Source: a virus
Taxonomy: Duplodnaviria; Caudoviricetes
Virus record (IMG/VR): IMGVR_UViG_3300021399_000102
Location: 137,558 to 201,557 of that record
Length of the DNA: 64,000 nt
Strand: one strand, 5' to 3'
This document shows, piece after piece, positions 45,478 through 55,659 of this stretch. The notes beneath the pieces are model-generated. The model did no database searches and was not told the DNA's origin. It saw nothing but the letters and a program-made list of their open reading frames with translations. Position 1 is the stretch's first letter; every line of letters begins with the position of its first letter. The position numbers and the translations under genes are program-made.

Positions 45478-45507
45478 ATTGTAAATCCTATTGTCAATTA
45501 TACGAAA

Positions 45508-46266
45508 TCATTTAAGCAGAAGTGAATCATTCAAAATTATTTTTCCATCTACAAAGTCTTTATATTGTTTCTCACCAATAAAGTAGATTCTTATTCCTGG
45601 ATTATTTTCCAAGACAAGACTCATCTTTTCCTTGTCTTTGTCTGAATAATAACCCTTTACTTCAATATACTCGTTTGTATCAGGTAAGTAGAAATCTGGA
45701 TTATAGGTCTTGCGTATTCCATCCTTAATGTATTTCAATGATTTGTTTCTGATCCAATTTATGTCGGTTGAAGTTAATTTGTTGGCAACATTCTCCTCCC
45801 AGTGACCCCGTACAGTATATTCAACCCCATCTAAGTTCTTCACTTTATACCAACCAACATCTTTGAATCCCCCTTTACACGAATCAAGATATTTAGAACG
45901 AATTTCAGAAAGTTTCTCTCGTGTTTCTTTGGTGTGAGTATGATGTAAAATTCTTTTTTGTGAGATTTTATTTTTCTCTGCTATTTGTCTTATTTTTATT
46001 GATGTCTCGCTGGTCAATCCCTTGTTCCATGCCATTCCCTTCTTAAATCCATGTTTCTCTTTTCTATGGATTTGCATTTCTTTTCTTGTACAGAAAATAC
46101 TTCCACAAATTGTACACTTCCAAGTGTGTTGTTGTCTATTCACATTAAAATTGCACACATGATGTTTGACTTGTTTGCCAATGAATACATGCCTACAATG
46201 ATTGGAGCAGAATCTTCCGCTCCCATATGTCCCATCATGGGGATTTCCACAATTCTCACATTTCAT
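45508..46266 (-). CDS. free-standing endonuclease (Zn fingers, NUMOD-like, PD-(D/E)XK)
   Basis: MKCENCG..GSGRFCS, C2H2 finger, AWNKGLT, YNPDFYL..YIEVKG. Confidence 0.8.
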   Translation of the reverse strand: MKCENCGNPHDGTYGSGRFCSNHCRHVFIGKQVKHHVCNFNVNRQQHTWKCTICGSIFCTRKEMQIHRKEKHGFKKGMAWNKGLTSETSIKIRQIAEKNKISQKRILHHTHTKETREKLSEIRSKYLDSCKGGFKDVGWYKVKNLDGVEYTVRGHWEENVANKLTSTDINWIRNKSLKYIKDGIRKTYNPDFYLPDTNEYIEVKGYYSDKDKEKMSLVLENNPGIRIYFIGEKQYKDFVDGKIILNDSLLLK

Positions 46267-46376
46267 AATTTTACCTTTAGTTTAATGTCGTTGTTCGCTC
46301 AACGACATCTTTATTTACAATTATACGAAAAGTTGTCCTCGAATCTGTTGGAGCGAACCATGAGTCCGAGGGCAAA
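46267..46376 (-). promoter_or_regulatory. kissing-loop leader motif, copy 1
   Basis: hairpin loop TTCGCT complementary to downstream hairpin loop AGCGAA; TATAAT-t-GTAAATA between them. Confidence 0.7.
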
Positions 46377-46378
46377 AT

Positions 46379-46471
46379 TGGTTGGGGAGGCGGGGCTCGA
46401 ACCCGCGATTGATGTAATCTCAAGAACCAACTACGTTTCTACGGCTTATAAGACCGCGTCGCTACTCCCCA
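46379..46471 (-). tRNA. atypical tRNA-Ile(UAU): no D arm, about 34 nt variable region
   Basis: acceptor TGGGGAG/CTCCCCA-ACCA, GCGGT-ct TAT aa-GCCGT, T arm GCGGG-TTCGAGC-CCCGC. Confidence 0.65.
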
Positions 46472-46496
46472 TTGAAATTAAAAGTTGAAGCCCAAG

Positions 46497-46752
46497 AAAT
46501 GGGTCAAATACATCGGTTTTCTTCCGAAGTGAAATCCCCATCTTCGCCGTTTAGACATTTCTGATTTATAACTCTTGGACTTCTGGGAGTTATACCCGGC
46601 GCGTTCAATCACTCCGCCACCATACCACAGGCTGCGATAGGGAGGGATTCAAACCCCCGGTCGAAGATTCGCCTTTCAGCAAAAGATAACACCCAACAGC
46701 AACCGGTTTGCGGTGGGTATTCTTCGACACCGAACACTGTTATCTCCCATTT
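46497..46752 (-). ncRNA. Y-RNA(YrlA)-like RNA with circularly permuted tRNA domain
   Basis: order T arm, closed acceptor stem, D arm (core 46596-46660); ends pair AAATGGG/CCCATTT. Confidence 0.55.
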
Positions 46753-46763
46753 AACTTGAAACC

Positions 46764-46840
46764 TGGAGCATCAGATGGAACTCGAATCCACAACCTCGTC
46801 CATGGCAAGGACGCGCTCTGACCAATTGAGCTACTGACGC
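46764..46840 (-). tRNA. tRNA-Gly(GCC)
   Basis: CGTCC-tt GCC at-GGACG; TCCA. Confidence 0.92.
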
Positions 46841-46922
46841 AAGATTGCCGTGCGATTTCACTGCCGACCGATGTGCCCGAAGCATCTATCATTCGCCCGA
46901 TCAAGCTTCAACACGGCAAAAG

Positions 46923-46997
46923 TGGATCGAATGATGGGTGCTGCTCCCACTTAATCCAACCTGGCAGATTGGTGTACTGCTGATGTACCACATTCGC
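46923..46997 (-). tRNA. tRNA-Gly(GCC), atypical T loop
   Basis: CCAAT-ct GCC ag-GTTGG; TCCA. Confidence 0.75.
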
Positions 46998-47004
46998 ATT
47001 AAAT

Positions 47005-47080
47005 TGGTGCGATGTGCCGGTGACGCTCCGGCCCGTTCAGCTTGGAAGGCTGACATCCTGCTAACATAAATGAACATCGC
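47005..47080 (-). tRNA. tRNA-Gly(UCC)
   Basis: TCAGC-ct TCC aa-GCTGA; CCA. Confidence 0.85.
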
Positions 47081-47119
47081 AAAAATCCTTAAACCATGAC
47101 GAAAGGGAAGCATTGAAAC

Positions 47120-47194
47120 TGGTTGTCCCGCCAGGATGTGCGCCTGGTCTAAGGGTATCAAAAACCCCTGTGCGGACTGATACACCACAGGACA
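47120..47194 (-). tRNA. tRNA-Gln(UUG)
   Basis: GGGGT-tt TTG at-ACCCT; U1-A72; CCA. Confidence 0.82.
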
Positions 47195-47884
47195 TACATT
47201 GAAATTGGGCAGGGTTTGCTTTTCCGGGGTCACCTGCGTTCTCCCCAACCGAAGACCCACGAGGGGCTTTTGATGTTTCTCGTTCGGCATCCACCTGGGG
47301 GATGGCGATACACGCAGTAGGCTACGCTGCTCCCTGGGTCTGCTGTTCCCCCAGCTCAGCCCAACACGTTCTTGGGACTTCACCAACGGTCGATTCGTCT
47401 ACGTCCTGTTGGCTTGCATATGGCGTTGTTCGTGATATCCCACAATATTGAACTCAAGCAACACGTCGGGATTCGGACCACGGTCTCCCCCCATACGAGA
47501 GGTATTCTGCCTTTTTGAACTATTCGTGTCTAATCCTCATGTGACGAACAACACCTAAAGAGGGAGTGTTTGCAGAGCAAGACTTCACCGGTAGCCACCA
47601 TCTTGCTTTTCGACTGCTGGGGTTTCTATCATTCACTCTTCCAGAATGCATCGAAACTAGGAACTTGCGCGTTAACCTACACACATCACATCCCCTGAAC
47701 ACACAACCCATATTGAAATTCTTGAAGCGGAGTTTGCTTGTGGATGCGTCTATAGCCACAGAGCCACCATGTTTACGGACCAGGAAAGAAGCTTTCTGAC
47801 CCCTGAATCCTATTTGTCCATTCATGACTGAACAACCCTCAGACGCTTATTATGTCTTCTCCGCACAATCTATCTGAGGGAAAT

Positions 47885-47960
47885 TGGTGTCCCAGACTTG
47901 AGTCGAACAAGCCACCTGATTCTTAGGAGGAATCCGCTCTTCCTGATGAGCTACTGGGAC
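47885..47960 (-). tRNA. tRNA-Arg(CCU)
   Basis: GATTC-ct CCT aa-GAATC; CCA. Confidence 0.92.
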
Positions 47961-48075
47961 ATTGAAATGCAGGAAGGAAGAAGAACGTAGTGGACTCGAA
48001 CCACCTCAGCCGTCGCATTCTCAATCAAGAGTGGGAACACCCATCCCAGATGTACGTTCTTGCTTCTCTCTCAAA

Positions 48076-48149
48076 TGGCGGGGTATCCGGGTGCTGCCCC
48101 CGGGACGCAAGTTAGACAGACTAACGTGATACTGTTTCACCAATACCCC
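48076..48149 (-). tRNA. tRNA-Asp(GUC)
   Basis: loop ct GTC ta, weak anticodon stem; GCCA. Confidence 0.75.
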
Positions 48150-48526
48150 CTTGAAATAGCAAGGTCTCATTTTTCAACCACTCGCCACCCATCCTACTCG
48201 GATTTTGAGATGTCTCCTGTACGGGGAGCCACGTATACTTTCGCTCGCCACTACTCGCGCACCGCCCATATTGGCGGCCTCTACTGTCCTTTCAGCCTTA
48301 GCCTTGTCCGTTGTATGAGACCCATATGTGAATCTGTTGCGTTCACGTGTTCTACGCAACTTCTGGCATGCCGAGGGGATGATCCACAATCCCCAAATCA
48401 AATCCATTCACTTGTCAAAGAACAACCTTTGTCTAATGCGCAAGCATTATTCAAAGAGCAATGTCTTTCCGGATGTTCTTGGACACATCCATCAAAGAGC
48501 AATAGCCATCAAAATTGGCATAGATA

Positions 48527-48555
48527 ATTATACAATACATCACGACCCAAGTAAA
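48527..48555 (-). promoter_or_regulatory. internal sigma70 promoter of the RNA array, followed by boxA-like sites
   Basis: TTTACT-N17-TATAAT; TGCTCTTTGA at 48492-48501 and 48451-48460; GTTCTTTGACAA at 48412-48423. Confidence 0.75.
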
Positions 48556-48573
48556 GGGAATTTTCAACAAAAA

Positions 48574-48651
48574 TGGTCTTCACGGAAGGAATCGAACCTT
48601 CGACCTCCACTATGTCAAAGTGGCACTCTTAACCTACTGAGCTACGCGAAG
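48574..48651 (-). tRNA. tRNA-Val(GAC)
   Basis: CCACT-tt GAC at-AGTGG; ACCA. Confidence 0.9.
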
Positions 48652-48653
48652 TT

Positions 48654-48728
48654 TGGTGGATGAGGAGAGAATCGGACTCCCAGCACATACCATGTGAAGG
48701 TATTGCTCTACCATTGAGCTACTCATCC
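48654..48728 (-). tRNA. tRNA-Val(CAC)
   Basis: ATACC-tt CAC at-GGTAT; ACCA. Confidence 0.9.
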
Positions 48729-48738
48729 ATATTGAAAT

Positions 48739-48815
48739 TGGGTTGTCTTGCTGGTTCTGCCCCAGCGATTTCCCCGTCCACAGCGGGGCGTCTTCACTAC
48801 TCGACCAAAGACAAC
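48739..48815 (-). tRNA. tRNA-His(GUG)
   Basis: CCCCG-ct GTG ga-CGGGG; G-1:C73; CCA. Confidence 0.85.
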
Positions 48816-48824
48816 ATCTAAATT

Positions 48825-48907
48825 CGGAGTGTGATAGATTTGCACTATCGGATGCTTTCACATCACAGATTTCCAATCTGACCCAATAACTACTCTGGCA
48901 ACACTCC
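48825..48907 (-). tRNA. tRNA-Ser(GGA)
   Basis: CAGA-tt GGA aa-TCTG, long variable arm, no encoded CCA. Confidence 0.82.
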
Positions 48908-48914
48908 ATAAATT

Positions 48915-49009
48915 CGGAGTTGGGTGGATTTGAACCACCACAGGGACTTTGACATCCCCTACTAACGGTTTAGCAAACCGTGGCCTTACCTGGTTAGGCT
49001 TACAACTCC
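48915..49009 (-). tRNA. tRNA-Ser(GCU)
   Basis: ACGGT-tt GCT aa-ACCGT, long variable arm, no encoded CCA. Confidence 0.88.
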
Positions 49010-49016
49010 ATAAAAG

Positions 49017-49105
49017 TGGAAGAGGGTATCCGATTCGGACGGATGGACGCTATTAACGCCACAGAGGTTCAAGCTCTGCTCAATAGACCACTCTGACAAC
49101 CCTCC
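49017..49105 (-). tRNA. tRNA-Ser(UGA)
   Basis: CAGAG-ct TGA ac-CTCTG, long variable arm. Confidence 0.85.
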
Positions 49106-49116
49106 ATTGAAATCTA

Positions 49117-49202
49117 CGGATGGAGCTGGACTTGCACCAACATGTGGCTTTCACCACCCTTGCTTTCGAGGCAAGACCTTTACTATTTAGGAGAATCCAT
49201 CC
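49117..49202 (-). tRNA. tRNA-Ser(CGA)
   Basis: CTTGC-ct CGA aa-GCAAG, long variable arm, no encoded CCA. Confidence 0.8.
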
Positions 49203-49776
49203 ATCTTGAAATTGAAAAGGAATATGGCGTTCCTGTTTCGCAAGGTTATGAGCCTTGAATACGACATGGACTCAGATGACTACTCGCTGTGGCTGGTCAC
49301 ATCTTCCGGAAGTTTTGCGGACTTGACTTTTTTAGTCCCGCCAGTTGGAGCATTGCTTTCGCACCACTTGTTGCTGTATCGCACAAGCATATTTCGTCAT
49401 TCAGGCTTGCCATCAAGCCTTGGCTTTTCTGCTACCCCCAGGGAGAGAAATGCCAACAAAGAGACATCGTTGAAATTGAACCAGAGACCAGAATTATTCG
49501 GCATGAACTTGCTTGGCATCGTCACACCAAGTATGTAGGTTCATACGTCAACCTTTAACGACTGCAAGAGTTGGACGTACACGAGGTTGCTATCCATTGG
49601 TACGTGTGGTCTTCTTCGGCGCTTATCTCTGTTCAGACCATCTTCATGCGAGTCTTATGACTGGAATGCGAATCCAATCAAAATGATGGAAGCAGTGGGA
49701 TTCGGGCCCACATTGGGGATTTCACCCATCCGCTTACCGAAGATTCCTTTCCTGTTCGGTTTCATGCTCCCATAAA

Positions 49777-49862
49777 TGGTCGGAGTGGAGGGATTTGAAC
49801 CCCCGAGGCTTTCGCATCTGCTCCCAAAGCAGACCCGGTACCAGGCTACGGTCTACACTCCG
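49777..49862 (-). tRNA. tRNA-Pro(UGG)
   Basis: TCTGC-tt TGG ga-GCAGA; C1-G72; ACCA; small extra variable hairpin. Confidence 0.9.
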
Positions 49863-49875
49863 ATGTAAATTGTAA

Positions 49876-50291
49876 ATGAACCATCCGACTGGGAGTTGCC
49901 CCACCTTGCGTCTAAACAAACGCTGCGCAAGCAACCATCGCAGGACATCCCACGAATTTTCACCATATCCCATTTATCTGCATCCACCTGCAACGGATGT
50001 ACCCCTCCACTTTTATTGTGTGAATCATTGGGATCCGCCAAGGCAGATCGTTATCTAGGACTTTCCATTGCTCATGGGTAGCCTTTCTTTCGGGTATGCA
50101 CCTTCGTTTATACGAAGCATCTCCTCTTCTCGGAGAAACCTTCGCAATCAGCATGAGTTTTGCTACTCTACTCACCACTATAGTGCGCCCATTCACTCAT
50201 TAAGGGGCTTGGTTTAACTTACTTTCCATTGTGGTGTAAGGCTGCCGTTGAAGCATTAAGCATACTGGGTTTCACTCCCCATCTGGTTCAT
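49876..50291 (-). ncRNA. candidate large structured RNA (~415 nt)
   Basis: closing helix ATGAACCA/TGGTTCAT, many hairpins, CAATGGAAAGT twice, no credible ORF, directly after a promoter and boxA. Confidence 0.5.
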
Positions 50292-50371
50292 AAAGTCGAT
50301 TGTCAAAGAGCAATCTTTGTCTATGCGAACTTGTCGCACATCAAAGATCTACGTTCAAATGAACGTATTCA

Positions 50372-50400
50372 ATTATACGCGCAATTGAACGTATTGTAAA
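50372..50400 (-). promoter_or_regulatory. internal sigma70 promoter plus boxA
   Basis: TTTACA-N17-TATAAT; TGCTCTTTGACAA at 50300-50312. Confidence 0.75.
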
Positions 50401-50402
50401 GT

Positions 50403-50477
50403 TGGCATCCCTGCACGGTAACGCTCCGTGGTCTGGTGGATGAAAACCACCCGATCTTACTTTTAATCTACAGGGAC
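50403..50477 (-). tRNA. tRNA-Glu(UUC)
   Basis: GGTGG-tt TTC at-CCACC; GCCA. Confidence 0.85.
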
Positions 50478-50521
50478 ATTGAAAGAGCAATGGTTGTTTG
50501 ATTTGCAAACACACATTGAAA

Positions 50522-50595
50522 TGGCAGCTCTGCACGGTATCGCGCCGTGTTCTCCTGCGTGAGAGGCAGGCGATCTGCTTCTAATCTACAGAGCC
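50522..50595 (-). tRNA. tRNA-Glu(CUC)
   Basis: CCTGC-ct CTC ac-GCAGG; GCCA. Confidence 0.85.
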
Positions 50596-50677
50596 ATTGA
50601 AATTGAAATCCAATTAAACGACATCGCTCTTTATTTGATGTGGCAATCACTGCCACATGGCAGTTTATTTTGTTTCG

Positions 50678-50761
50678 GACAGAGCCTTGCCAACCTCTTA
50701 ACCATCATTGGGAACGATGGATGGAGTCGAACCATCATGTTTGATTGCATAACCAAACGTC
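50678..50761 (-). ncRNA. second permuted tRNA-like (T-AS-D) domain, Y-RNA-like
   Basis: GATGG-TTCGACT-CCATC, CATCGTT-ccc-AATGATG, GAG-gttggcaagg-CTC. Confidence 0.55.
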
Positions 50762-50908
50762 TTGAAAATTGCTTGGCAATATTCAACCAATGTTCCAAGG
50801 GGGAATCGGACCCGTTGTTGCCTATCGTCATACTTCTCACCAGAGTAAGAACATCAATCATGGAATTGCCTTAACCATCTTGCAAGTTGGATAAATGAAC
50901 AAGTCATT

Positions 50909-50987
50909 TGGAGAGCGAGGTGGGAATCGAACCCACATTATCGCGGTTTTGCAGACCGCGCCCAGTGCCAATATCGAGAACTCGCCC
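50909..50987 (-). tRNA. tRNA-Cys(GCA)
   Basis: GCGGT-ct GCA aa-ACCGC; TCCA. Confidence 0.9.
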
Positions 50988-51111
50988 AAATTGACAAGCG
51001 ACACCCGGTCTGGTTTGACGGGGCAGAGCTGCGCAGATTGCACCCCTCCAGCATCTCGCCGTGCGCAATGGCGCGTTCTGATTGAACTACGTATGTGTCG
51101 CAAATTATCTA

Positions 51112-51795
51112 TTAAATTATACGGCCTTTTCTCCAACCATTTGGAATTGGATTTGTTTTTAGAATGACTTTGTTCTCACCAGTTAAATCATTACAAATCC
51201 ACATCTTTCCAAATTGATTGTTGTTTCTACCTTGTTTCTTTTCTGACATTTTTCTACGAGATTCGTTTGAATGATGCTTACCATACATGGGGTTTAATTC
51301 GCCCGTTTTAGGATGACTTTTGGCGTATTGTTTATTTGCCATTGAATTCTTTTTACGCCATTCTTCATATTTCTCAGGATTATTTTCTTTCAACCGTTTA
51401 GCCCACCCTTTTGATGGATATTCACCCGTTTCTTCAAAAATCCTTTTACATGTTTCAGAAAGTGGCTTAAAATTTCCACTATGATTTAATCCAGTTGTGT
51501 TCAAATAATCCCAACCACCTTGACCACCAAGTTTGATGTTATAGACATCATTACGATTCAAAAAATCTTCATTTACGAGTTCAGCTTCCTTTGCGTTCAT
51601 TTCCTCTTGTGAAGAACACTCAAATAGAATCTCTCGCTTGAAATTCTGTTCGCCATACTTCTCTATGGCGCGTTGGATTAGAATGCCCGAACCCAAATAT
51701 CCATCATCCAGGTTGTCCGTTTCATGTTTGCCAATGTAGATTTTACCATTGACCAGATTAGTGGTCTTGTAAACCAAATAATGTTTCTTCTTCAT
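51112..51795 (-). CDS. GIY-YIG (Seg-like) homing endonuclease with NUMOD3
   Basis: YLVYKTTNLVNGKIYIGKH..DGYLGSG..YNIKLGG; NPMYGKHHSNESRRKMSE. Confidence 0.92.
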   Translation of the reverse strand: MKKKHYLVYKTTNLVNGKIYIGKHETDNLDDGYLGSGILIQRAIEKYGEQNFKREILFECSSQEEMNAKEAELVNEDFLNRNDVYNIKLGGQGGWDYLNTTGLNHSGNFKPLSETCKRIFEETGEYPSKGWAKRLKENNPEKYEEWRKKNSMANKQYAKSHPKTGELNPMYGKHHSNESRRKMSEKKQGRNNNQFGKMWICNDLTGENKVILKTNPIPNGWRKGRII

Positions 51796-51910
51796 GTTCT
51801 TTTACCTTTAGATTTACGAGGTTGTTTGCTCCAACCTCATTACTGTTTACAATTATACTCAGATTAAGTCCCCACATCCCTGTTGGGAGCAAACCATGAA
51901 GGAGGGGGAC
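51796..51910 (-). promoter_or_regulatory. kissing-loop leader motif, copy 2
   Basis: loop TTTGCTC complementary to loop GAGCAAA; TATAAT-t-GTAAACA between. Confidence 0.7.
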
Positions 51911-51915
51911 AAATT

Positions 51916-51988
51916 CACGGTCTGGTGGAGTCGAACCACCCTCTTCGGATTTGGAGTCCGAGGCACTCTCCATGAAGACCAAGACCGT
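51916..51988 (-). tRNA. tRNA-Trp(CCA)
   Basis: TCGGA-ct CCA aa-TCCGA; no encoded CCA tail. Confidence 0.85.
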
Positions 51989-51995
51989 ATTGAAA

Positions 51996-52071
51996 TGGCA
52001 CTCCCACTCAGATTCCAACTGAGAATACAGAGTTCGTAGCCCTGGAGTTTATGCGATTAGCTTATGGGAGC
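51996..52071 (-). tRNA. tRNA-Arg(ACG)
   Basis: CAGGG-ct ACG aa-CTCTG; GCCA. Confidence 0.85.
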
Positions 52072-52081
52072 ATTCAAGAAA

Positions 52082-52155
52082 TGGCTGGGGATGATGGTAT
52101 TGCGCCACCTCTAAAAGGTTCAGAGCCTTCTGTACCACTTTTATACGAATCCCCA
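52082..52155 (-). tRNA. tRNA-Gln(CUG)
   Basis: GAAGG-ct CTG aa-CCTTT; TGGGGAT/ATCCCCA-GCCA. Confidence 0.88.
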
Positions 52156-52549
52156 ATTGTTAAAAGAGCTGAGCGTTTTTGCCGATGTTTGGTTATCTAT
52201 TCATTGATATCCATACATTGGGGAGTGGAGGATGTACACCATCAAAGCTCGTGTACCGACCCATGAAACACACAAACCACCTGGTCTTATGGTGATTCCA
52301 GGAACCAATCAATCCCACAATATCTGAATAAGTGGAGTCAAATCGTAAATTGAAATTGGCGGCAACGTCCGATTCTCACGGCACAAACAGCTCCCTGCTG
52401 CCATGCTCATATGGTTTCCCTATCTAGAGTCAAGAAACCACGTCCCTTGTTTCGGAGCAAGGCGAATTCAATTCCTTTGACTCCTTCGTGGATTACATCA
52501 TATTGCCAAAATTGGTGGAAGTGTCGCACAAGGGGACACGTACCATAAA

Positions 52550-52623
52550 TGGTGGACACGTCCGGTAACGCTCCGGAGTCTCCTCAATGCCATTGAGGTG
52601 TTCTACTATTGAACTAGCGGCCC
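52550..52623 (-). tRNA. tRNA-Ala(GGC)
   Basis: CCTCA-at GGC at-TGAGG; ACCA. Confidence 0.85.
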
Positions 52624-52625
52624 AT

Positions 52626-52699
52626 TGGTGGAGTCGTCGAGAATCGAACTCGGATCTCTTGAATGCGAATCAAGCGTTCTACCACTGAACTAACGCCCC
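52626..52699 (-). tRNA. tRNA-Ala(CGC)
   Basis: CTTGA-tt CGC at-TCAAG; ACCA. Confidence 0.88.
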
Positions 52700-52943
52700 A
52701 TTGTGAAATCTTGGCGTGAGAGGGAGTCGAACCCTCGTCTCGTTCATTGCCATTGAAATGTCCCGGCCGTAGAACCAATGACATTGAGTTGTTCTGCCGT
52801 TGAACTATCACCCCATCTTGAAATTGGTTGGAACAACCCTACCTTCAGTATCATGAACTTTGACCCGTTTCAATCAAGAAACTGTCGGTCCAATAGGCTT
52901 GCGTTCCCAAACAGGAAATCTTCACGTCGTCATTCCAAAATTA

Positions 52944-53019
52944 TGGTGGAAGAGGATGGGATCGAACCATCACCTTTGGATTTTCAGTCCATAGTACACA
53001 CCAAGTATACGACCCTTCC
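52944..53019 (-). tRNA. tRNA-Phe(GAA)
   Basis: TGGA-ct GAA aa-TCCA; ACCA. Confidence 0.88.
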
Positions 53020-53155
53020 ATTATGAAATTGGTGGCTGTCTTGTGGTTATCTACTCCACTGTCTCCCCAACGGGCGATGCATCAACCCATAACGTCAGGG
53101 AACCCGTTTTACGCACGGGACAAGACCAATTACTTGCGTATCAAGCCATTGAAAC

Positions 53156-53242
53156 TGGTTGTGAGGGTTGGAATTGCACCAACGTTGTTTCTAATGTGGC
53201 GGGTTTACAGCCCGCTGCGTTCGCTACTACGCTAACCCCACA
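53156..53242 (-). tRNA. tRNA-Tyr(GUA)
   Basis: GCGGG-ct GTA aa-CCCGC; long variable region. Confidence 0.88.
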
Positions 53243-53251
53243 ATAAAATCT

Positions 53252-53339
53252 TGGTTGGAGAGGTGGGACTCGAACCCACGACAGAATTACCATGCGGGTG
53301 TATCAGACCCGTGCGTTACACCAACTTCGCCACTCTCCA
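53252..53339 (-). tRNA. tRNA-Ile(GAU) with long variable region
   Basis: CGGGT-ct GAT ac-ACCCG; ACCA. Confidence 0.85.
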
Positions 53340-53359
53340 ATTGAAATCTCGAAATCGTT

Positions 53360-53434
53360 TGGTGTCGGATGGTGGAGTCGAACCACCTTATAACGCCGTA
53401 TGAAAGCGCACCATGACCGTTCTGGCAACCCGAC
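53360..53434 (-). tRNA. tRNA-Met or Ile2 (CAU)
   Basis: GCGCT-tt CAT ac-GGCGT; ACCA. Confidence 0.82.
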
Positions 53435-53437
53435 ATT

Positions 53438-53512
53438 TGGAGCTGGAAATTGCACTCGCAGCAATGTTATCCGTCTTACGAGGACGGCGCCTGACTTCTC
53501 AGCCATTCCAGC
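53438..53512 (-). tRNA. tRNA-Thr(CGU)
   Basis: CCGTC-ct CGT aa-GACGG. Confidence 0.85.
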
Positions 53513-53649
53513 ATACTTGAAAGGTTGCTTGCATTCACATGAGTGGTTGTTGGTTTGTTCTCCAACGAGGAATCGGGAACTCATGAAGAAAGAACCATAC
53601 CGAAGAACATCTTCGTGCAATGCAAGGCTTGAAATTCATCGTGAAATCT

Positions 53650-53724
53650 TGGAGCTGACGGAAGAACTCGCATCTTCGTGTTCCGTCATACCAAGACGGC
53701 ACCTAACTTCTCAGTCACATCAGC
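53650..53724 (-). tRNA. tRNA-Thr(GGU)
   Basis: CCGTC-tt GGT at-GACGG. Confidence 0.85.
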
Positions 53725-53734
53725 ATTGAATCGT

Positions 53735-53813
53735 TGGTAGGGATGATGGGATTCGGACCCATACTGTACACGCCCTGAACGTGTCGCCTGCTGCCAAATT
53801 GGGCTACATCCCC
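53735..53813 (-). tRNA. tRNA-Leu(CAG), short variable loop
   Basis: ACACG-tt CAG gg-CGTGT; ACCA. Confidence 0.88.
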
Positions 53814-53825
53814 ATTTGTCGAAGT

Positions 53826-53911
53826 TGGTCGCCAAGGAGGGACTTGAACCCTCACGTACTTTCGTACAATAGATTTTGAGTCTATCGCGGCTGCCATTAC
53901 ACCACTTGGCG
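53826..53911 (-). tRNA. tRNA-Leu(CAA)
   Basis: ATAGA-ct CAA aa-TCTAT; long variable arm. Confidence 0.9.
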
Positions 53912-53912
53912 C

Positions 53913-53989
53913 TGGTCCTGGTGGAGGGAGTCGAACCCACACTACACGGAGTTTGAAACCGCCGGCTCTGCCAATTGGTCTACACCAGG
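53913..53989 (-). tRNA. tRNA-Leu(CAA), short variable loop
   Basis: GCGGT-tt CAA ac-TCCGT by alignment to the neighbouring Leu(CAG). Confidence 0.72.
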
Positions 53990-54000
53990 ATTCTTGAAAT

Positions 54001-54093
54001 TGGTGCGGGTGAGAGGACTTGAACCTCCACGGTACTATGATTTCCCAACAGCCCCTCAAGCTGTCGCGTACTGCCAAATTTCGCCACACCCGC
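54001..54093 (-). tRNA. tRNA-Leu(GAG)
   Basis: ACAGC-tt GAG gg-GCTGT. Confidence 0.9.
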
Positions 54094-54280
54094 ATTTGAA
54101 GTCGCCGGACTAACTGCTCTATAAACAAGGTTCGCAATGTCCTTGCTGGTGAAGAGACTAACACCACGTCACCACGCAATGCGTTCATCCAGTAAAAATG
54201 GTACTTCCACTCGGAACTGCCCCGAGATATAGCCGGTAAGAGCGGCTGGTCTTCTAGTTGACTTATGGAAGCATTGAAGA

Positions 54281-54355
54281 TGGTACTCCGCGCGGGAGTC
54301 AAACCCGCAACCCAGGGTTTAAGAGACCCTTGCGCTATCATTGCGCCAGCGGAGC
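54281..54355 (-). tRNA. tRNA-Lys(CUU)
   Basis: AGGGT-ct CTT aa-ACCCT. Confidence 0.9.
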
Positions 54356-54362
54356 ATTGAAA

Positions 54363-55082
54363 TTATTCATCTATGAACTCTTTGGCAATCCGAATATACT
54401 TCTTTGGATTGTGGAATACATCTTTCCACTTGAGTCTCAACAATTGCCATCCTTCATCCTTTAAGAGTTCATTCTTTCTCAAATCCCTTTCTATTTGCTC
54501 TGGGAATATTTCGTGCTGCTTGCCATCAATCTCAATGCACTTCTTCTTGTGTTCCCAGGCAAAGTCCAACGAGAACCTATGAAACGGTCTTTCACGCACA
54601 TAGTTCTTGTCAGCAAATTCGTTCTCAATCACTTGCATGAACCACTTCTCGGGCCATGAAGGTTCATTGTTCCATCTGCACTCGCCAATGTTGTGCGCAC
54701 GGCCTTCTGCGTGAGCTTTCTTCATTGACTCAGAAATCTTCTTTCGCATTTCATCCGGGAGATGCTTTCCTTCCCAATGGAACTTTACCAATCCTTCTGA
54801 AATTCGTTGTTTAAGCGTTTCAACACCTTTGGCAATTCTTGGGTCTATGTCTTTCGTCAAACCCTTATTCCAACATCGTTTCGATTTGTGTGCTTCATGT
54901 TTGTGCTTATACATTAAGCTACGAGACTTAAATTCTTCGCCACATTGGTCGCATATCCAAGGTGTGCCTTTCTGGTGTTTTCGTTCGCAAGAGTGAGCAT
55001 ATGCTCCTCTACATTCCTTGGAGCAGAATCTTCCGCTTCCATACGAGCCATCATGCTCGTTTCCACATACTTCGCATTTCAT
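54363..55082 (-). CDS. free-standing endonuclease (Zn fingers, NUMOD3, DUF559/Vsr-like nuclease domain)
   Basis: MKCEVCG..GSGRFCS (same N-terminus as 45508..46266), GKHLPDEMRKKISES, LDFAW..IEIDGKQH..RDLRKNELLKDEGWQLLR. Confidence 0.82.
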   Translation of the reverse strand: MKCEVCGNEHDGSYGSGRFCSKECRGAYAHSCERKHQKGTPWICDQCGEEFKSRSLMYKHKHEAHKSKRCWNKGLTKDIDPRIAKGVETLKQRISEGLVKFHWEGKHLPDEMRKKISESMKKAHAEGRAHNIGECRWNNEPSWPEKWFMQVIENEFADKNYVRERPFHRFSLDFAWEHKKKCIEIDGKQHEIFPEQIERDLRKNELLKDEGWQLLRLKWKDVFHNPKKYIRIAKEFIDE

Positions 55083-55195
55083 AATTTTTGCCTTTAGTTT
55101 AGAGACGTTATTTACGGTAACGTCATCTCTATTTACAATTATACGAAAATTTGTCCCAGACCTATGTTGGCCGTAAACCATGATGGAATGGGACA
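55083..55195 (-). promoter_or_regulatory. kissing-loop leader motif, copy 3
   Basis: loop TTTACGG complementary to loop CCGTAAA; TATAAT-t-GTAAATA between. Confidence 0.7.
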
Positions 55196-55200
55196 TTAAG

Positions 55201-55478
55201 TGGCTGATGAGGAGGGACTCGAACCCCCAGTTGCTTTCGCCACGGATTACCTGCTACATTGGTTTCCCATTGTAGTCTGGACTATCTCATCATCCCATTT
55301 CTGGGAGCGTCCTCTATAGTCTCTACGCATTTACGCATTTCTGCGATTTAGTTCTGTGATTAGCATGTTGCATACGCAATTTAGCCTCTCCAGAGTTAGG
55401 GACGTGTTTCAATCAAGGTTGCCCTTGAAAGCTGCCATATAGGACAGTCCGCTGCCTTACCATTCGGCTCACTCATCA
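55201..55478 (-). tRNA. tRNA-Asn(GUU) interrupted by a group I intron (exons 55444-55478 and 55201-55249)
   Basis: spliced arm GCGGA-ct GT^T aa-TCCGT; U1-A72, G73, CCA. Confidence 0.88.
55250..55443 (-). ncRNA. group I intron (194 nt, no ORF)
   Basis: 5' exon ends in U paired to G in P1 (CTGT^C / GGCAG); R element GTAGAGACTATA, S element GATAGTCC (P7); terminal G. Confidence 0.88.
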
Positions 55479-55659
55479 TCAAATCGTTCTAAATTGACGT
55501 GTTGGGAAGGATTCGGACCTTCATAGGGCATTATGCTAACGAATGTTTCCATGCTTGGAAACCACCTCTCTAATGTCCAATCGGCGGCCTTTGCCGATGC
55601 ATAGCCCGTTCTATGCTGCTTCAACACACGAAACTTGTTTCAGCACTATTGAAATTCGC

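Follow-up and report, generated by a model that had tools for sequence, protein, structure and literature searches.

Three endonuclease genes in a 64,000-nucleotide (nt) stretch of Caudoviricetes virus DNA share an RNA leader in which two hairpins carry fully complementary loops. The stretch, referred to here as the window, comprises bases 137558-201557 of a 201.5-kilobase (kb) IMG/VR record, IMGVR_UViG_3300021399_000102 (G000), with an estimated completeness of ~48%. The loops of each leader are exact reverse complements of each other in all three window copies, yet they differ between copies (TTCGCT/AGCGAA, TTTGCTC/GAGCAAA, and TTTACGG/CCGTAAA), as a sequence-only reading of the window had pointed out. 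In total, we recovered 29 distinct copies of the leader in front of at least four nuclease families. The leader motif is real, highly non-random, and RNA-based. Compensated changes across copies indicate that the loop-loop complementarity is under strong selection, and we consider the chances about even that the motif works in cis as a structured RNA leader for homing-endonuclease cassettes.

The three leaders are located in a minus-strand transfer RNA (tRNA) array, in which ARAGORN predicts 32 tRNA genes and Rfam several more. Every element of the proposed shared architecture was found on the minus strand in all three: a long hairpin 1, a promoter-like motif, hairpin 2, a ribosome-binding site, and the ATG, in that order. 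Hairpin 1 has a long imperfect stem with a conserved 2x2 internal loop, a 3-base-pair (bp) TGG/CCA cap, and a loop of 6-7 nt. Hairpin 2 has a stem of 7-10 bp and a loop of 6-7 nt, and is followed by an A-rich stretch with AAAGG and then by the endonuclease ATG. Both hairpins were predicted by RNAfold in all three copies, with z-scores of -2.3 to -3.5. AAAGG lies 6-8 nt 3' of hairpin 2 and 8-10 nt 5' of the ATG; the distance from the end of hairpin 2 to the ATG is constant at 20-21 nt, and that from the end of loop 2 is 27-30 nt.

By sequence reading, copy 1 spans 46264-46376 (window coordinates are on the minus strand unless stated otherwise). Its hairpin 1 (46335-46373) begins a few nt past the 3' end of a tRNA at 46382-46471 (Rfam tRNA, 32.3 bits) and has loop 1, TTCGCT, at 46352-46357, CA/AC as the 2x2 internal loop, and TGG/CCA as the cap. 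The promoter-like motif GTATAATTGTAAATA (46312-46326) lies between the hairpins, hairpin 2 (9-10 bp, 46284-46309) has loop 2, AGCGAA, at 46294-46299, and AAAGG and the nuclease gene extend over 45508-46278 (AAAGG 46274-46278, ATG 46264-46266, 252 amino acids). Copy 2 (51793-51910) follows tRNA-Trp (51915-51989) and consists of hairpin 1 at 51868-51910 (loop 1 TTTGCTC, 51887-51893), the motif GTATAATTGTAAACA at 51844-51858, hairpin 2 at 51816-51840 (loop 2 GAGCAAA, 51825-51831), and AAAGG with the endonuclease gene at 51112-51809 (AAAGG 51805-51809, ATG 51793-51795, 227 amino acids). In copy 3 (55080-55195), a tRNA 3' end in CCA near 55201 precedes hairpin 1 at 55152-55195 (loop 1 TTTACGG, 55171-55177), which is followed by GTATAATTGTAAATA at 55130-55144, hairpin 2 at 55101-55128 (loop 2 CCGTAAA, 55111-55117), and AAAGG with the nuclease gene at 54363-55095 (AAAGG 55091-55095, ATG 55080-55082, 239 amino acids).

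The promoter-like 15-mer, GTATAATTGTAAAYA, has only three exact matches in the window, and these are the three leaders. Its placement between the two hairpins, anticipated by the sequence-only reading, was confirmed by position in every copy. TAAT(T/G)GTAAATA variants lie 20-45 nt ahead of the start codons of many genes, in the same orientation, in G000 and in two related genomes (G001 and G002). A search for a sigma-70 -35 element at the three in-window motif copies found none, and one leader copy has an exact TATAAATA, the T4 late-promoter consensus. For these reasons, we treat the motif as a putative phage-specific promoter, probably of a late type.

Other readings of hairpin 1 were considered. 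A conserved small open reading frame (ORF) starting from the ATG inside TCATGG was rejected because frames and lengths vary between copies, and a mimic of the tRNA T-arm or minihelix was rejected because the loops are 6-7 nt long with no conserved A at the T-loop position. In-window hairpin 1 also does not resemble an intrinsic terminator, with an imperfect stem, no T-run directly after it, and no terminator called on the minus strand. Terminator-like calls were made on the (+) strand at 46285-46308, 51818-51838, and 55104-55124, where the complement of hairpin 2 precedes a T-rich tail that complements the A-rich promoter motif. Such a structure could stop antisense transcription entering the leader.

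Loop covariation across leader copies

A covariance model made from the copies was applied to G000 outside the window and to the relatives G001, G002, and G004, and recovered further leaders in all of them. These relatives are complete contigs of 414-434 kb with terminal repeats, and we therefore regard the source virus as a jumbo phage. A metagenome scan, in which the pattern specified the hairpin-1 cap and the promoter motif alone and left hairpin 2 and loop 2 free, returned 19 distinct motif-bearing sequences and one chance match. The exact reverse complement of loop 1 was present in loop 2 in 18 of the 19 sequences, and the remaining one keeps the loop pair through a single U.G wobble. The complementarity noted in the window thus holds in further homologs, and the combined set contains 18 distinct loop pairs.

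We aligned 21 leaders and counted structure with the loop-loop helix as a pseudoknot. The kissing helix had 99.2% paired cells, and five of its seven positions vary on both sides; one column pair occurs as UA in eight leaders, AU in five, CG in five, and GC in three. None of 500 shuffles matched the observed values, and sliding the partner by 1-3 columns reduced pairing to 33-60%. Covariation in the stems had also been claimed, and it is evident in hairpin 2, where 93% of the helix is paired and six of nine pairs covary. The lower stem of hairpin 1 diverges widely in sequence, yet a long hairpin is still predicted in 20 of the 21 copies. Nearest-neighbour duplex energies of the loops alone were -4 to -8 kcal/mol, and in all copies the loop partners lie 43-58 nt apart on the same strand. 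The leader thus combines two hairpins that are each independently predicted to be stable with covarying Watson-Crick pairing between their loops, as would be expected of a kissing-loop complex.

An unbiased scan gave a similar picture. In G000 and in G001 and G002, which were taken whole, we searched for all pairs of hairpins separated by 30-140 nt with loops that are reverse-complementary over their full length. The 15 hits comprised eight motif loci, with three of them counted a second time on the other strand, and four likely chance hits, compared with five hits for direct-repeat, five for reversed, and two for complement-only controls. Together with the alignment statistics, these controls exclude an artefact of chance or paralogy.

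Leader copies fall into two sub-types, with 13 loop pairs of the in-window type and five of a terminator type. The in-window type has the TCATGG...CCAACA cap and is always found a few nt behind a tRNA 3' end. Terminator-type leaders occur outside the window (G000:114626, G001:125304 and 310603, and G004:231426 and 268492), and their hairpin 1 is a perfect, G+C-rich stem of 10-13 bp followed by a T-run, resembling the intrinsic terminator of the upstream gene. Complementarity between the two hairpins ends exactly at the loop edges in this type, and the stems are unrelated. Two hybrids, L312 and L314, combine hairpin 1 of the in-window type with the hairpin-2 stem of the terminator type. Some copies of the terminator type have, behind the promoter motif, a short UACUUUU stretch that can pair with AAAAGGUA; the in-window type has no equivalent.

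Closely related copies show how the loops change. G000 and G002 share an orthologous site behind tRNA-Ile(UAU), where the endonucleases are 89% identical, the hairpin-2 stems are identical, and the loops carry three compensated changes (TTCGCT/AGCGAA versus TTCTAG/CTAGAA). In copies from G001 and G004, the stems of both hairpins are the same, and the loops differ by two compensated changes. A possibly related arrangement was observed in L116 (G007), an unrelated 243-kb phage contig, where two hairpins with complementary 6-nt loops (CTTCCA/TGGAAG) lie upstream of the start of a homologous zinc-finger endonuclease gene, ~110 nt before position 1201. This pair suggests that the design extends beyond this clade.

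Comparison with the Rfam covariance models found no family that matches the motif. The three in-window leaders had no match in Rfam 15 at E<=1, and five related loci had chance-level matches only, the match within a leader being BSnc120 to hairpin 1 of L051 at 27 bits against a 114-bit cut-off. No GenBank phage matched the region by megablast, and a locus search by the GIY-YIG protein found no relative in IMG/VR. Two loose DNA patterns gave mostly chance loci that were filtered by script: 34 loci with only G001 and G003 real for one pattern, and 117 loci with four real leaders and one chance AT-rich match for the other. A search of prokaryote genomes with the leader pattern returned a single chance match that lacked the architecture, and so provided no clue to the host.

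Nuclease genes and the tRNA array

Genes downstream of the leader encode diverse but consistently endonuclease-like proteins. The copy 1 protein has a zinc-finger/NUMOD-like N-terminal part and a Phage_endo_I-like domain (Pfam PF05367, E 4.8e-7), the copy 2 protein is GIY-YIG with NUMOD3 (NUMOD3 E 6.8e-10; SegE_GIY-YIG E 9e-5), and the copy 3 protein combines a zinc-finger/NUMOD-like N-terminal part with a DUF559 domain (Pfam PF04480, E 3.6e-10). The description of these as three different families is somewhat overstated, since copies 1 and 3 share their N-terminal zinc-finger/NUMOD-like region and both of their nuclease domains belong to the PD-(D/E)XK superfold. Relatives do, however, contribute HNH. 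All 13 downstream ORFs scanned with Pfam, including the three in the window, were homing-endonuclease-like (GIY-YIG/NUMOD3, HNH, DUF559, or Phage_endo_I-like). Unscanned downstream ORFs have N-termini like the scanned ones, except that of L308, which is short (85 amino acids, with two in-frame TAG codons) and looks degraded. A NUMOD3 search of four genomes found only genes with a kissing-loop leader, and the leader-endonuclease association is exclusive in the genomes examined.

Leaders that share a loop pair and are otherwise nearly identical stand ahead of different ORFs: GIY-YIG in L309 and zinc-finger/NUMOD3 in L310, GIY-YIG in L312 and an HNH-like protein (by its N-terminal HNH motif) in L314, and HNH in L302 and DUF559 in L313. 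These pairs indicate that the leader is a module ahead of interchangeable nuclease genes, in agreement with the earlier suggestion of a cassette with swappable nucleases.

In-frame TAG codons occur in endonuclease ORFs behind the leader in a G000 copy, in L302, L308, L309, L312, and L314, and in G001:125387-126130. The gene at G000:113550-114536 (L052:515-1501, minus strand, outside the window) would encode a 328-amino-acid zinc-finger/PD-(D/E)XK endonuclease if TAG is read as glutamine. These codons, examined on these genes alone, fit TAG recoding in the phage, which would add a second lock on nuclease expression.

Hairpin 1 is also found without a cassette. In G002, one complete hairpin 1 (loop TTCGTG) lies in a tRNA spacer, with a T-run and then the next tRNA behind it; behind a second (loop TTGCAG) come another variant of the promoter and an odd tRNA. 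The window contains a truncated hairpin 1 at 47083-47112 between tRNA-Gln and tRNA-Gly, which the sequence-only reading had called an ORF-less remnant; its 5' half and TCATGGTT (47092-47099) are real, but the CCAAC half, promoter, hairpin 2, and ORF are all missing. Since cassette-free copies occur between tRNA genes of G002, hairpin 1 may be an element of the tRNA spacer itself and not of a mobile cassette. Around an orphan hairpin 1 in the region L050:1433-1949 (G002:367853-368369), ARAGORN calls a gene resembling transfer-messenger RNA just on its 5' side and, just on its 3' side, a 'tRNA-???' with an abnormal anticodon loop. This anticodon loop holds the hexamer TTGCAG of the hairpin-1 loop, as a direct repeat and not as its complement.

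The cassette of copy 1 is bracketed by a 13-nt direct repeat, TTTCGTATAATTG, at 46318-46330 and 45495-45507. The second repeat copy lies within a promoter variant, GTATAATTGACAATA, just past the stop codon and before tRNA-Ala, and the arrangement is the same in G002. If the two repeats recombined, the cassette would be lost, and hairpin 1, a promoter, and the tRNA would remain.

Additional features were predicted within the array. Rfam calls six tRNA-like genes that ARAGORN missed (46382-46471, 48079-48149, 50525-50595, 52085-52155, 52553-52622, and 52712-52814), two of which are unusually long (90 and 103 nt). Directly upstream of copy 3, a tRNA-like gene contains a group I intron-like RNA at 55256-55490 with its 3' exon at 55200-55255, scoring 33.1 bits against Rfam RF00028 (E 2.5e-5), under the 50-bit cut-off. 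L302 has a group I intron above the cut-off (54.2 bits; L302:3446-3639) at the same position before a leader and HNH gene. By analogy, endonuclease cassettes beside intron-bearing tRNA genes recall 'collaborative homing'.

Possible functions of the loop-loop contact

The position of the promoter suggests how the leader could act. Hairpin 1 would be part of the upstream tRNA trailer or, in the terminator type, the terminator-like hairpin of the upstream gene, and is followed by the cassette's own putative promoter, which lacks a -35 element, and then by hairpin 2. Only read-through transcripts from upstream would hold both loops, which could pair over their full 6-7 nt into an intramolecular kissing complex, whereas transcripts from the cassette promoter would have hairpin 2 alone, at or near the 5' end. 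The kissing complex would thereby mark read-through RNA. Most likely, such RNA would be translated inefficiently or degraded quickly, leaving the cassette promoter as the only source of the nuclease. One possible route is that a rigid or bulky coaxial rod of hairpin 1, loop-loop helix, and hairpin 2 at the edge of the 30S footprint hinders ribosome binding, and another is that the complex serves as a substrate for nuclease cleavage. From these sequence patterns, we infer an active late-type promoter, a contact in cis, and a repressive effect. Overall, we hold with middling confidence that a cis kissing complex keeps nuclease expression down on read-through RNA until the cassette's own promoter fires.

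Several observations weigh against this reading. The T4-type arrangement, in which the Shine-Dalgarno sequence or start codon lies within the 3' pairing partner, was not found, as AAAGG and the ATG are outside all covarying pairs. In minimum free energy and partition-function folds, mean predicted accessibility of the Shine-Dalgarno-AUG region was ~0.58 in read-through RNA versus ~0.79 in short RNA, a drop that is modest and inconsistent, with two of nine copies showing the opposite. Two-hairpin leaders that lack loop complementarity also exist (G002:16004, G004:393100, and G001:409711). For the terminator type, most upstream transcripts should end at hairpin 1, which may leave little read-through RNA. 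Additionally, a small comparison asking whether the GTAAATA motif marks TAG-containing (late) genes pointed neither way (3/14 versus 2/11 genes). The earlier suggestion of a switch silencing the nuclease on read-through tRNA transcripts is a consistent though tentative reading. Sequestration of that site by ordinary secondary structure was rejected because results were inconsistent across copies, and we found no evidence for a further suggestion, that the leader is a nuclease-bound RNA.

The same loop pairs could act in trans. Hairpin 1, freed as a tRNA trailer fragment or as the 3' end of a terminated transcript, would then behave like an antisense RNA and kiss hairpin 2 of the endonuclease messenger RNA (mRNA), a possibility that we consider unlikely because the partners are always so closely spaced on one strand, which favours contact in cis, and because there is no evidence that stable hairpin-1 fragments accumulate. 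It does gain from the terminator type, where the G+C-rich stem and T-run imply that a terminated RNA would end in hairpin 1, from the cassette-free hairpins of G002, which indicate that hairpin 1 can be a resident, separately made element, and from the precedent of a terminator loop kissing an mRNA in OxyS-fhlA (10.1101/2024.01.16.575843). We also find it improbable, to a like degree, that such pairing cuts translation or stability of endonuclease mRNA with each cassette having its own loop 'address'. Loop pairs are all different within one genome or contig (four in G000, three in G001, and three in L318), but with this number of loop types, such differences would be expected to arise by chance. 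A more elaborate version, which we find quite doubtful, treats the loop pairs as address codes of trans control, in which tRNA-spacer or terminator hairpins are resident phage elements whose RNA, set free in bulk by tRNA processing or termination, specifically titrates the adjacent endonuclease mRNA. The fast compensated turnover of loops amid identical orthologous stems would then reflect selection for private specificities. Such a system, if true and if shared by other phage lineages, would amount to a widespread and so far undescribed group of phage regulatory RNAs devoted to homing endonucleases.

Rather than affecting translation, the kissing complex could be a processing or stability signal that separates the tRNA precursor from the nuclease mRNA. 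The stems and loop helix could form a quasi-continuous helix of ~25-30 bp that is an RNase III-type substrate, exceeding 22 bp only when both hairpins are present, or the complex could direct RNase E cleavage in the linker, which is A/U-rich and predicted to be single-stranded. In-window-type copies all lie directly behind tRNA 3' ends, where processing must happen. However, cassette-free tRNA spacers are processed without hairpin 2, no cleavage site is identifiable in the sequence, and the fixed distance between hairpin 2 and the ATG is more suggestive of the ribosome than of a nuclease, and we regard a processing role as distinctly unlikely. A role at the DNA level, with inverted repeats around the promoter for protein binding, cruciform formation, or cassette recombination, appears highly improbable. 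The loops do form an inverted repeat flanking the promoter, the complementarity of the in-window type can be extended by CAAC/GTTG, and the folding energy of hairpin 2 has no strand preference. Yet a protein site would be conserved and not different in each copy, whereas the 18 loop pairs covary with complementarity alone being kept, and no complementarity exists outside the loops in the terminator type. Moreover, the U.G pair of one copy would be an A.C mismatch on the other strand, and for hairpin 1 the sense strand gives the more stable fold in 18 of the 21 copies.

Comparison with known systems

Homing endonucleases need the right timing and dose to be expressed without harming the carrier phage. 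To our knowledge, the T4-type stem that buries the ribosome-binding site is the only RNA solution described for control of their expression. Translational-control hairpins whose embedded promoter is late or middle are documented for I-TevI, I-TevII, I-TevIII, segB, and Aeh1 mobE (PMC2988022). The leaders described here resemble these T-even leaders in belonging to homing-endonuclease genes inside heavily transcribed units, and in having a promoter, or here a promoter-like motif, between the pairing partners so that only read-through RNA can form the long-range contact. They differ in that the T4 structure is an ordinary stem whose 3' arm includes the Shine-Dalgarno sequence, whereas here the contact is a 6-7 nt loop-loop helix of two hairpins and the ribosome-binding site is 6-8 nt 3' of hairpin 2, outside the covarying pairs. 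Distant zinc-finger endonuclease homologues also lie behind tRNA genes in T4-like IMG/VR contigs (L124, L135, L143, L144, L146, L149, and L170). There, a large hairpin whose loop contains a TATAAATA-type motif is found ~100 nt before position 1201, with arms TTCGAAC.../...GGAGGTTCGAA-ATG, a paired ribosome-binding site, and an arm sequence that resembles a tRNA T-arm.

Fully complementary kissing complexes are formed by the 7-nt loops of ColE1 RNA I/RNA II and the 6-nt loops of HIV TAR/TAR*. As in those systems, the leader has two stable predicted hairpins with 6- or 7-nt loops that are complementary over their full length. Those complexes are intermolecular, in ColE1 through antisense transcription of one DNA segment, whereas both loops here are on the same strand ~50 nt apart and their complementarity is kept by compensatory mutation. 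The terminator type is also similar to OxyS-fhlA (10.1101/2024.01.16.575843), in which a terminator loop pairs with a hairpin loop near a translation start. In contrast to the leader, OxyS is trans-acting and host-encoded and pairs at the translation initiation region itself, while the target loop here is upstream of the ribosome-binding site and its partner is encoded just upstream. A further likeness is to seg43(25) of Aeromonas phage 25, compared here by description only, where a very stable hairpin lies directly 5' of, and excludes, the ribosome-binding site of a free-standing endonuclease gene; the description includes no second hairpin or loop-loop partner (PMC2988022).

A full-text literature search found no paper describing a kissing-loop leader of this kind. 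If the contact controls expression, it would be a new and easily reprogrammable cis (or trans) RNA switch whose specificity is set by 6-7 loop bases. The leader would then also be a marker for endonuclease cassettes in uncultured phages, and loop swaps would offer a direct handle on why these selfish genes are so tightly controlled within tRNA arrays. Compared with the T-even leaders, the same layout, with a promoter between the pairing partners, relies here on covarying loops that pair with each other while the ribosome-binding site stays unpaired, and we regard the leader as a new structural variant of the promoter-embedded leader control of homing endonucleases.

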